NCBI GenBank assembly: GCA_035504945.1
Contig: DATJRH010000011.1
Span: 3,448 to 67,447 of the forward strand
DNA length: 64,000 nucleotides
Direction: 5' to 3'
Origin: Candidatus Aquilonibacter sp.
Lineage (GTDB): Bacteria; Verrucomicrobiota; Verrucomicrobiia; Limisphaerales; UBA11358
Numbering within the stretch: position 1 is the first letter of the stretch; each line of letters opens with the position of its first letter. The notes beneath the pieces were generated by a model. The model did not search any database and had not been told where the DNA came from. It saw only the letters and a program-made list of their open reading frames with translations. Of the stretch, positions 42,917 to 45,044 are shown one piece after another. The translations under genes were made by a program, and so were the position numbers.

Positions 42917-44251
42917 ATGATTACGCGCTATTCCCGCCCGGAAATGCGGGCGATTTGGACGGACGAAAACAAACTCCGCATCTGGCTGCAAATCGAACTG
43001 CTCGCCAGCGAGGCACTCGTCAAGGAACGCGTCGTCCCCGCAAAAGATTTCTCAAAAATCAAGGCCGGCGCGAAAAAATGCCTTGCCGATTTGAAAGGAC
43101 TCGTTGAACGGCAGAAGGAACTGGAAAAAATCCTGAACCACGATGTCATTGGCTTCACCACCGCCGTTGCGGAAAAAATCAATGACAACGCTTCGCGCTG
43201 GTTTCATTTCGGCCTGACGAGCAGCGACGTCGGCGACACCTGCCTGGCCGTGCAAATGGTCCAGTCGGCGGACATTTTGATCGCCGATGTCCAAACGCTC
43301 CGCAAATCAATCGCCCGGCGCGCGAAGGAATTTCAATTCACGCCCTGCATTGGCCGCAGCCACGGCATCCACGCCGAGCCGACGACGTTCGGCCTGAAAC
43401 TCGCGTTGATGTTTGACGAATTTGGCCGCGCGCTTGAACGGCTCGAACGCGCCCGCGCCGCCGCCGCCGTCGGCAAATTAAGCGGAGCGGTTGGGACAAA
43501 CGCGCATTTGCCGCCGCGCGTCGAGGAATTTGTCTGCAAGAAACTCGGCCTGCGCCCTGCGCCGATTGCCACGCAGGTTGTCCAGCGCGACATTCACGCG
43601 GAATTTCAAACCGCGCTCGCGCTCGTCGGCGCGAGCATCGAACGCTGGGCGGTTGAGTTCCGCCATTTGCAGCGCACGGAAGTTCTCGAAGCCGAGGAGC
43701 CGTTCAGCAAAGGCCAGAAAGGCTCCAGCGCCATGCCGCACAAGCGCAACCCCATCACTTGGGAGCGGCTCACCGGCCTCGCCCGCGTCCTGCGCGGCAA
43801 CGCCATCGCCGCGCTGGAAGATGTCGCATTGTGGCATGAGCGGGACATTTCACACTCATCCGTCGAGCGGATTATTTTCCCTGATTCCTGCACGCTGCTC
43901 GACTATATGTTCAGCCTGCTCACGCGGCTGATGGATGGCCTGAACGTCTATTCGGAAAACATGAAACGCAACCTCGGCCTCTCGCTGGGCATGTGGAATT
44001 CGCAAACAGTCTTGCTCGCGCTCATCAAAAAGGGCCTGACGCGTGAAGCCGCCTACAAACTCGTTCAGGACGCCGCGATGAAAACGTGGGAAGTAAAACA
44101 CGCCGGTCGCGACGACGCGGATTTTGTGGAGCAATTAAAATCCACGCCGGAAGTTGCCAAACATTTTGCCAAAGGCGAACTGGAAAAACTCTGCTCCCTC
44201 GACTTCCATTTCAAGGAAGTGAAGAGCCGGTTTAAGAAACTGGGGCTGTGA
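42917..44251 (+). CDS. purB: adenylosuccinate lyase
   Basis: [37 protein letters not shown] signature. Confidence 0.9.
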
Positions 44252-44271
44252 GCAACCACAGACCAACACGA

Positions 44272-44787
44272 ATGAACCCTCCCCGCTGCATCGTCATTGC
44301 CGGACCGAATGGCGCGGGCAAAACGACTTTTGCGCGGGAATTCCTGCCAAAGGATGCGGGCGTTATTCATTTCGTGAACGCCGACCTCATCGCCGCCGGG
44401 CTGTCCCCGCTGCGACCGGAACTGGCCGCGCTTGCCGGGGGTCGCCTGCTGTTGACGGAACTGGATCGTCTGGCCAAAGCCAGGACAGACTTTGCGTTCG
44501 AAAGCACGTTAAGCGGGCTGGGCTATTTGGGACGATTGCAGAAATGGAAGGCCGCCGGCTATCGCATTGAAATGGTTTTCCTGCGGCTGCACTCGCCGCA
44601 ACTGGCTTTGCGGCGCATTGCCGTCCGCGTGAAACAAGGCGGGCATGATGTTCCGCGCGCCGATGTATTGCGCCGTTTTGCACGCGGCTGGCGGAATTTT
44701 GAGGCCAGCTACAAACCGCTGGCGGATGCGTGGGCGGTGTATGATAATTCCGGGGATCAACCTCAATTATTGGAGACAAAACGATGA
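44272..44787 (+). CDS. zeta-toxin-like P-loop ATPase (COG4185-type)
   Basis: IVIAGPNGAGKTTFAREFLP Walker A, and HDVPRADVLRRF typical of the family. An alternative GTG at 44248 overlaps the purB stop. Confidence 0.7.
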   Translation: MNPPRCIVIAGPNGAGKTTFAREFLPKDAGVIHFVNADLIAAGLSPLRPELAALAGGRLLLTELDRLAKARTDFAFESTLSGLGYLGRLQKWKAAGYRIEMVFLRLHSPQLALRRIAVRVKQGGHDVPRADVLRRFARGWRNFEASYKPLADAWAVYDNSGDQPQLLETKR

Positions 44788-44936
44788 AAGCAAAGCATGG
44801 CAGACAAGAAGCGTTTGCGACCACGGTAGGCCGGGCGCTCCGGCGCGCGGGCCTGGCCGCTCGCAAAACTGCCCGCGCCCACGGCACGCCGATTTATGTC
44901 TGGCGCGGGGGCAAAGTAGTGGCCCAGAAACCCTGA
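44784..44936 (+). CDS. small basic ORF (50 aa) translationally coupled to the zeta-like gene, a possible antitoxin or partner
   Basis: ATGA overlap with the upstream stop. MKAKHGRQEAFATTVGRALRRAGLAARKTARAHGTPIYVWRGGKVVAQKP. Below the track length cut-off. Confidence 0.45.
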   Translation: MKAKHGRQEAFATTVGRALRRAGLAARKTARAHGTPIYVWRGGKVVAQKP

Positions 44937-44948
44937 CCTCCTGCCGTG

Positions 44949-45044
44949 GCGAAACATTTCAAGCCGGGCGAACTGGAAAAACTCTGTTCGCTCGACTTCC
45001 ATTTCAAGGAAGTGAAGAACCGGTTCAAGAAACTGGGGCTTTGA
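44949..45044 (+). repeat. duplicated (relic) purB 3' end
   Basis: By hand alignment 83 of 96 nt match 44156-44251, including the stop codon. It encodes [31 protein letters not shown], versus [31 protein letters not shown] in purB. Confidence 0.8.

Follow-up and report, generated by a model that had tools for sequence, protein, structure and literature searches.

How does a compact gene cassette that encodes no recombinase come to lie between two copies of the end of a housekeeping gene? The question is raised by a 64,000-nt stretch of DNA (contig DATJRH010000011.1, hereafter the window) from a soil genome bin of the Limisphaerales, Verrucomicrobiota. We call this genome G000; other G and L numbers denote the genomes and loci with which it was compared. 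In the window, purB, encoding adenylosuccinate lyase, is followed by a gene for a short zeta/PezT-like P-loop kinase (the ATPase), a coupled open reading frame (ORF) of 50 aa and a second, free-standing copy of the purB 3' end. In brief, the displaced copy is foreign and the end attached to purB behaves as the native one, and the two-gene unit recurs behind other genes in many phyla, where it can be bracketed by copies of the ends of those genes. With moderate confidence, we suggest that the cassette spreads by insertion with long target duplication, driven by homologous recombination of the host.

The purB gene itself is complete. The order lolE-lolD-rhomboid-purB on its upstream side is conserved among relatives, and the alignment of its C-terminus with 37 orthologs runs to the very end. 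The two copies of its 3' end align without gaps and are identical at 83 of 96 bases. Both are in the purB frame and terminated by TGA, and they correspond to the last 31 purB codons and the stop. Homology at the protein level extends about 12 nt (about 4 codons) upstream of this 96-nt core (PEVAKHF versus PAVAKHF), and the copies therefore have roughly the wider limits given in Table 1. The 13 base differences fall in nine codons. Six of these are changed synonymously (GCC/GCG, TTT/TTC, TGC/TGT, TCC/TCG, TTT/TTC and CTG/CTT) and three are replacements (A>K, K>P and S>N), compared with a synonymous share of 21% expected for random single-base changes in the repeat (P = 0.004 for six or more of nine). 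The pair (79 nt at 94% identity, spacing 793) is the only direct repeat of such size within 6 kb in the window, apart from repeats internal to proteins. An earlier account made from the letters of the window, referred to here as the preliminary description, had reported the duplicated end, its bias towards synonymous change, and the ATPase and the 50-aa ORF as the sole content between the copies; all of this is confirmed.

The insert contains no integrase, transposase, attC site or inverted repeat, and Pfam, NCBIfam, PADLOC and PHROGs show no mobility family in it. No promoter-like or terminator-like site was found in the gap between purB and the ATPase, and an Rfam scan of positions 42800-46100 gave no RNA family. 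The cassette is probably co-transcribed with purB.

Which of the two ends is native was examined by comparing 37 functional purB ends over the 96 nt. Among these, identity to the nearest neighbour averages 83.8/96 and reaches at most 89/96. Even the sister species G011 and L055, with purB bodies that are 94% identical, stay within this maximum. The proximal copy of G000 is ordinary, with its nearest functional end at 84/96. The distal copy is identical to the functional end of G011 at 93/96 positions and to that of L055 at 90/96, and its peptide is the same as in both. A distal copy above the maximum next to an ordinary proximal copy shows that the displaced end is foreign, from the G011/L055 clade, and that purB keeps its native end. 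The alignment to purB of relatives, which the preliminary description had proposed as a check, thus separates the copies clearly. That description had also supposed that a purB end was brought in from another lineage. One end is indeed foreign, but it is the distal, non-functional copy and not the end fused to purB. Each copy evolved as a working purB end in a lineage of its own, which explains why synonymous differences predominate between them; at its present place the distal copy is not under selection.

We also considered that G000 might be close kin of G011, with a native distal end and an entirely imported purB. G000 and G011 are 81% identical in the purB body and only 76% in the upstream lolE-lolD-rhomboid genes, and the latter value led us to reject this. 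A sliding window over the purB body, run for a recombination breakpoint, gave no close relative and no clear switch, and no G011-like sequence continues beyond position 45044.

Table 1. Features of the purB locus (window positions) and of similar inserts elsewhere in the G000 assembly (positions with a C number)
Feature	Position	Strand	Remarks
purB (adenylosuccinate lyase), full length, 444 aa	42917..44251	+	Pfam Lyase_1 8.6e-54, ADSL_C 9.8e-18
Proximal repeat copy, working purB 3' end including TGA	44144..44251 (96-nt core 44156-44251)	+	
Leader, 20 nt, from purB stop to ATPase start	44252..44271	+	
Zeta/PezT-like P-loop kinase, short, 171 aa, candidate toxin	44272..44787	+	Pfam Zeta_toxin
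Basic 50-aa ORF, candidate antitoxin/partner	44784..44936	+	ATG overlaps ATPase stop (ATGA)
Distal repeat copy, free-standing purB 3' end of foreign type, intact frame and TGA	44937..45044 (96-nt core 44949-45044)	+	
ParE-like pair between copies of the rsmA/ksgA 3' region	C34:26982-27698		Repeat stops about 25 nt before the stop codon
Gp49/XRE pair between ends of a KAS-like gene	C32:26246-27252		
PIN/VapB pair between pheS ends	C47:2957-3759		
Insert with 211-aa ORF behind a 485-aa gene	C39:31629-32513		
Insert with 259-aa ORF behind trxB	C42:13949-14827		

The distribution of the pair points to an insert and not to core genes, in line with the preliminary description. All 24 species of the same genus that were searched possess purB, and in none of them does the cassette adjoin it. 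The DNA 3' of the purB stop is different in almost every species compared. About a dozen other loci in Verrucomicrobiota have the cassette behind purB, and in many phyla it follows other genes. The genes upstream of it represent at least seven targets, including purB, guaB, bioB (in many Nitrospira), vapC, hsdM, an integrase gene and an IS66 transposase gene. Protein identity of the kinase pair is 70-91% across Verrucomicrobiota, Nitrospirota, several proteobacterial classes, Acidobacteriota and others. Upstream of the pair is a gene of the same direction, the stop of which is -8 to +36 nt away from the start codon of the pair; in many cases stop and start overlap as ATGA. This recurrence, tightly behind the stops of varied genes, suggests that the cassette acts as a unit without its own promoter that becomes attached to other genes at their 3' ends.

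The preliminary description had made its proposal depend on the downstream copy being confined to genomes with the cassette. A single purB end is present in 23 of the 24 cassette-less genomes of the genus, and from these we infer the empty site. The remaining genome, G004, does carry extra purB tails, and these flank a different cassette.

At each locus the two flanks of the cassette were then compared with each other, taking 300 nt upstream of the ATPase and 300 nt downstream of the small ORF, with windows shifted by 1.4 or 2.1 kb as controls. Direct repeats flank the cassette in 21 of 73 testable loci and in 2 of 246 shifted controls. Their lengths range from 22 to 229 nt across targets, and they are copies of the end of whichever gene stands upstream. 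Five genomes have guaB-end repeats (109, 58, 46, about 44 and 25 nt); a bioB-end repeat measures 66 nt, vapC-end repeats 76 and 32 nt, and purB-end repeats 84, about 110 and about 190 nt. Target duplication is therefore a property of the cassette and not of purB.

At several independent targets the distal copy begins 0-9 nt past the small ORF stop. The repeats reach as far as the stop codon of the target, the point up to which sequence is conserved between species; in many cases the two copies differ in their stop codons and are unrelated past them. Copies taken from two genomes should look like this, and a fresh duplication should not.

Other purB loci give some insight into the history of the arrangement. 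The order purB, cassette, purB tail is also found in L041, L044, L045, L046, L055, L058 and L071, and in the nearest relatives of G000, which come from metagenomes (L121/L122 and L123). The distal copy is about 190 nt long in L058 and L071. A form of about 110 nt, with the same joint to the small ORF stop, is found in G000, L041, L055 and L121, and the 84-nt form of L043, L045 and L046 equals this form minus 30 nt between GAAGC/CAAGC repeats. In L121 the distal copy is frameshifted and without a stop, in L123 it is truncated and in L042 it is lost. The distal copies in relatives form a series of decay by deletion, and part of the spread in repeat length is due to later deletion.

The locus in G000 is also a mosaic of at least two sources, since its cassette has its best matches in L123 and L121 (82-94% over the length of the cassette) and its distal tail in G011 and L055. 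The type of 20-nt leader found in G000 is also present in L121 and L123. In the equivalent leader of L055, the first approximately 13 nt are still homologous to the native purB 3' flank of G011. The approximately 28 nt after the distal copy of G000 (45045-45072, GACGCGGTTTCACGGATTTGCCAGATTG) resemble the leader that L041 and L055 have after their proximal purB stop (GACACGCATTACACTGATTCACACGA); by eye, about 19 of 28 positions match. A short piece of 3' untranslated sequence may once have been part of the duplicated unit.

Tails and cassettes are found in other combinations as well. G026 has the leader, the cassette and an 84-nt purB tail as one block downstream of an unrelated gene of 343 aa, and the contig lacks purB. 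The tail can therefore travel with the cassette. L071 harbors an array (89-1957) with a purB tail, a cassette, a second tail, a 168-aa ORF without a Pfam family and a third tail; the array counts two cassettes. A hairpin element, GGGGAGAGGG, lies between its first tail and the cassette, and the same element is found in L044 and L067. In G004 (L014, C3 4300-5400), purB is followed by a frameshifted PD-(D/E)XK (GxxExxY-type) gene and then by two more purB tails. Both of these tails, of about 70 nt, belong to a 154-nt tandem unit, and a GGACAGGATTTACAGGAT...TCCTGTAAATCCTGTC hairpin accompanies each of them. L015 (C3 4687-4830 of G011) is an orphan purB 3' fragment of about 150 nt, with an internal deletion of about 27 nt between AAGCC repeats; it lies directly behind an alcohol-dehydrogenase-like gene, and purB of G011 is located on another contig. 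Beyond the distal copy the flanks differ at every locus, often with defence-type genes.

The first gene of the cassette was described beforehand as zeta-like, and both family and fold agree with this. It matches Pfam PF06414 Zeta_toxin (E 1.6e-9; 37.9 bits against a cut-off of 22.3) over profile positions 81-170 only, and AAA_33 at 27.1 against a cut-off of 27. The AlphaFold model has a pLDDT of 90. Its top PDB fold matches are PezT (2p5t) and zeta (1gvn/3q8x), with TMq 0.75-0.81, followed by polynucleotide kinases and AvrRxo1, and a sequence search against the PDB gave P-loop matches only. Invariant in an alignment of 38 sequences are the Walker A motif GPNGAGKT, including K17, and the residues D38, E77, R115, R119 and H125. 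The GTxR motif, which binds UDP-N-acetylglucosamine (UNAG), is absent from the 171-aa sequence and from the alignment consensus. A literature search under COG4185 found nothing.

A useful comparison is Rv0366c of Mycobacterium tuberculosis, a short PezT-like protein whose expression stops growth and which is neutralised by the upstream antitoxin Rv0367c (PMC6362051). The residues named for Rv0366c are GPNGAGKS, D36, E75, R116 and H122, and the protein has neither the N-terminal helix nor the UNAG-binding GTxR motif (PMC6362051). The kinase in the window shares its Walker A motif and the Asp, Glu, Arg and His positions, and both the N-terminal helix and GTxR are missing in the two proteins. With the epsilon/zeta and PezA/PezT systems it has in common the Pfam family, above cut-off, and the P-loop kinase fold. 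However, no epsilon, PezA or ribbon-helix-helix (RHH) antitoxin is encoded upstream, where the stop of a host gene is found instead. The constant partner is encoded downstream and is a basic protein of 50 aa without a known fold.

In 80 of 80 related loci, the 50-aa ORF immediately follows the ATPase. Its homologs number more than 616; every one of them is named 'hypothetical', and none has a Pfam family. The protein has the invariant pattern GRALRR...ARK.AR..GT..Y.W..GK....KP. Conservation of this kind marks the ORF as a real, conserved protein. Its model consists of one helix and a beta hairpin (pLDDT 84), and a PDB fold search with this model gave no match. Pfam gave only a sub-threshold hit to AbiJ_NTD3, and NCBIfam, PADLOC and PHROGs gave nothing. 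Linkage and family suggest that the kinase and the 50-aa ORF are most likely a toxin with a downstream antitoxin. A read-through fusion of the 50-aa ORF with the distal tail was also considered; it is in frame in G000 and not in L041, L055 or G026, and was dismissed as chance.

How, then, may the cassette have spread? The imported distal end, the mosaic cassette, repeats that end where conservation ends, the arrays of tails and the unit in G026 together favour homologous recombination of the host. We suggest the following course. The cassette, which carries no recombinase, would travel together with a copy of a conserved gene end. With this copy, both sides of the cassette would be homologous to that gene in any recipient, irrespective of the DNA downstream of it. 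Host recombination could then place the cassette behind the gene, swap segments of it between species, remove it as a loop or build arrays of cassettes. After insertion the distal copy would be neutral and decay by deletion. Should the pair be addictive, selection would act against recombinants that have lost it, and the cassette would be kept while its surroundings are swapped or trimmed. RecA-type recombination as the engine of these steps is what we infer from sequence, and the toxin and antitoxin functions from sequence and predicted structure.

Several observations weigh against this proposal. Homologous recombination alone does not explain the first duplication at a new target gene, and a stretch of 96-108 nt with 85-95% identity offers little length for RecA recombination to be efficient. 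About 70% of the cassette loci have no flanking repeat. In L068-L070, L100 and L108 the kinase pair follows a type I hsdM, a tyrosine integrase or an IS66 transposase gene with an ATGA overlap, and no flanking repeat was detected at these loci. L075 and L078 resemble ordinary islets at tRNA sites. No empty site with the same downstream flank was found among the genomes searched: G011 and its sister L055 also differ downstream of purB, G026 has no close relatives among these genomes, and an exact-match scan of metagenome contigs for the distal flank of G000 found nothing. Finally, the tightness of the joint, 0-9 nt, also fits a defined mechanism of cutting or joining that went undetected. Two possibilities for the origin of the first duplication and for the tight joints are that repeated replacement at a hotspot trims unselected DNA to the edges of an addictive module, or that a hitherto unknown mechanism joins DNA at stop codons.

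A more specific form of the recombination proposal, which we put forward tentatively and hold to be somewhat doubtful, is that the distal gene-end copy serves as a targeting arm. Cassette and end would then form a recombinase-free unit, similar to a natural knock-in construct, that is placed by RecA and kept by addiction. A portable homology arm of this kind would explain why cassettes pile up behind conserved housekeeping genes, why the flanks are hotspots for defence genes, and the free-standing gene tails met by annotation pipelines. Toxin-antitoxin and defence cassettes of bacteria and archaea would then also have in common a general means of transfer from species to species that needs no enzyme of its own.

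As an alternative, each insertion might make its long target duplication de novo, by a filled-in staggered double-strand break or by a switch of replication template in which the cassette is copied and replication returns to a microhomology further upstream, with the imported ends as later overlays. Some first event must create the repeat at each new target gene, and near-identical repeats of host type do occur (L075, 229 nt at 98.7%; L056, 58 nt at 98%; L071, 180 nt at 96%; L048, 109 nt at 96%). The closeness of distal copies to the small ORF stop would also fit, as joints there show TGA, CTGACC and ATCCAGCC; these microhomologies are short and were read by eye, and chance may account for them. 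The copies in G000, however, belong to different lineages, and the repeats end at the stop codon, with differing stops and unrelated sequence beyond. Similar insertions of restriction-modification (R-M) genes were linked by their authors to double-strand breakage (PMC2853133). The kinase is not a nuclease, and as the cargo here is not R-M genes, a double-strand break made by the cargo cannot be invoked. We therefore regard de novo duplication at each insertion as unlikely.

The distal end could also have arrived as the left edge of the downstream DNA, from the lpxH-like gene onwards. A fragment of another species, anchored by its homology to purB, would have been joined illegitimately behind a resident addictive cassette and would not have replaced it. 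Orphan 3' fragments at Rhs/CdiA loci are thought to accumulate by such joining. In accordance with this, every cassette locus has a different flank, with the change falling exactly where the distal copy ends, and the lpxH-like gene is not found beside purB in the relatives searched. On the other hand, G000, L041, L055 and L121 have the same joint of small ORF stop and tail despite their differing downstream DNA, which argues that the tail belongs to the cassette rather than to the genes downstream. G026 has cassette and tail away from purB, and the G011-like sequence stops at the end of the distal copy. For these reasons arrival with the downstream DNA seems rather improbable to us.

The preliminary description had favoured an integrase-bearing island that inserted into the purB 3' end with a surrogate end and was later reduced to two genes. 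Direct repeats of a gene 3' end are the classical scar of such an event, the purB flank is a variable hotspot, and the cassette is found in islets bounded by repeats of a tRNA 3' end (L075 and L078) and directly behind an integrase gene (L100). We nevertheless consider an island remnant very unlikely, because the end fused to purB is of native type and the displaced end foreign, the reverse of what is predicted, because the same tight edges behind at least seven genes would each need an independent deletion ending exactly at the small ORF stop, because the repeats vary from 22 to 229 nt even for one target, because no recombinase lies between or beside them in G000, L041, L044-L046, L055, L058, L071 and L121, and because the left side, with 20 nt, and the right side, with about 0-9 nt, leave no space for arm sites.

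Self-comparison of the whole G000 assembly found five further small inserts between duplicated gene ends (Table 1), at least three of which are toxin-antitoxin cassettes; these speak for the same mode of insertion. The assembly also contains an integron-type array at C10:700-8200, with at least 11 copies of an attC site of about 127 nt (GCCTAAC...GTTAGGC) that are 92-98% identical and spaced 400-1000 nt. A second type of attC is interleaved at C10:25, 4192, 5785 and 6143, and single attC-like copies are found on C12, C13 and C25. In the window, positions 34162-34213 and 34416-34467 form a 52-nt direct repeat, 90% identical and 254 nt apart, with no tRNA in the nearby sequence.

The purB locus provides a concrete and well-sampled case of how small toxin-antitoxin-like cassettes can cross the borders of species, and even of phyla, without a mobility enzyme. 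It also brings to attention a very widespread pair whose kinase is related to Rv0366c, a protein of experimentally shown toxicity, and whose partner differs and is encoded downstream. With respect to its mode of insertion, the cassette can be compared with three known systems.

Like integron cassettes, which often carry toxin-antitoxin pairs, the purB cassette is compact and promoterless. The repeats around it differ from those of integrons in being copies of the end of the neighbouring gene. We considered and rejected an integron cassette for this locus, as the 12 nt between the small ORF and position 44949 hold no attC boxes (RYYYAAC...GTTRRRY), and the attC sites on C10 look quite different.

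Integrative elements that target the 3' ends of protein genes bring a replacement end, and integrase-less derivatives of them are known as cis-mobilizable elements. The locus resembles these in that a duplicated 3' end brackets foreign DNA and in that tandem accretion gives arrays of repeats. It differs from them in that there is no recombinase and no fixed core, the repeats are variable, and the imported end is displaced rather than fused to the gene.

The closest precedent in mode of insertion comes from R-M gene complexes without mobility genes, which lie between long, variable direct repeats (>30 bp) of one target (Furuta et al. 2010, PMC2853133). In some of the published cases the repeat overlaps the 3' end of a gene, and in the proposed life cycle the repeats serve entry, amplification and release (PMC2853133). 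The term 'insertion with long target duplication' goes back to Nobusato et al. 2000 (Gene 259:99), as cited in PMC2853133. The purB cassette agrees with these insertions in its repeat of 96-108 bp, thus above 30 bp, in having no mobility gene and in a repeat length that varies between events. The likeness is in the mode of insertion only: the cargo is a zeta-like kinase pair, the copies are of different species origin, and the cassette is promoterless and tightly joined to stop codons. The mode of insertion is thus already known for R-M systems. To this the purB locus adds a displaced end that is foreign and whose donor clade could be identified, a series of decay, a controlled excess of repeats for one cassette family, and the link of its kinase to the toxic Rv0366c.

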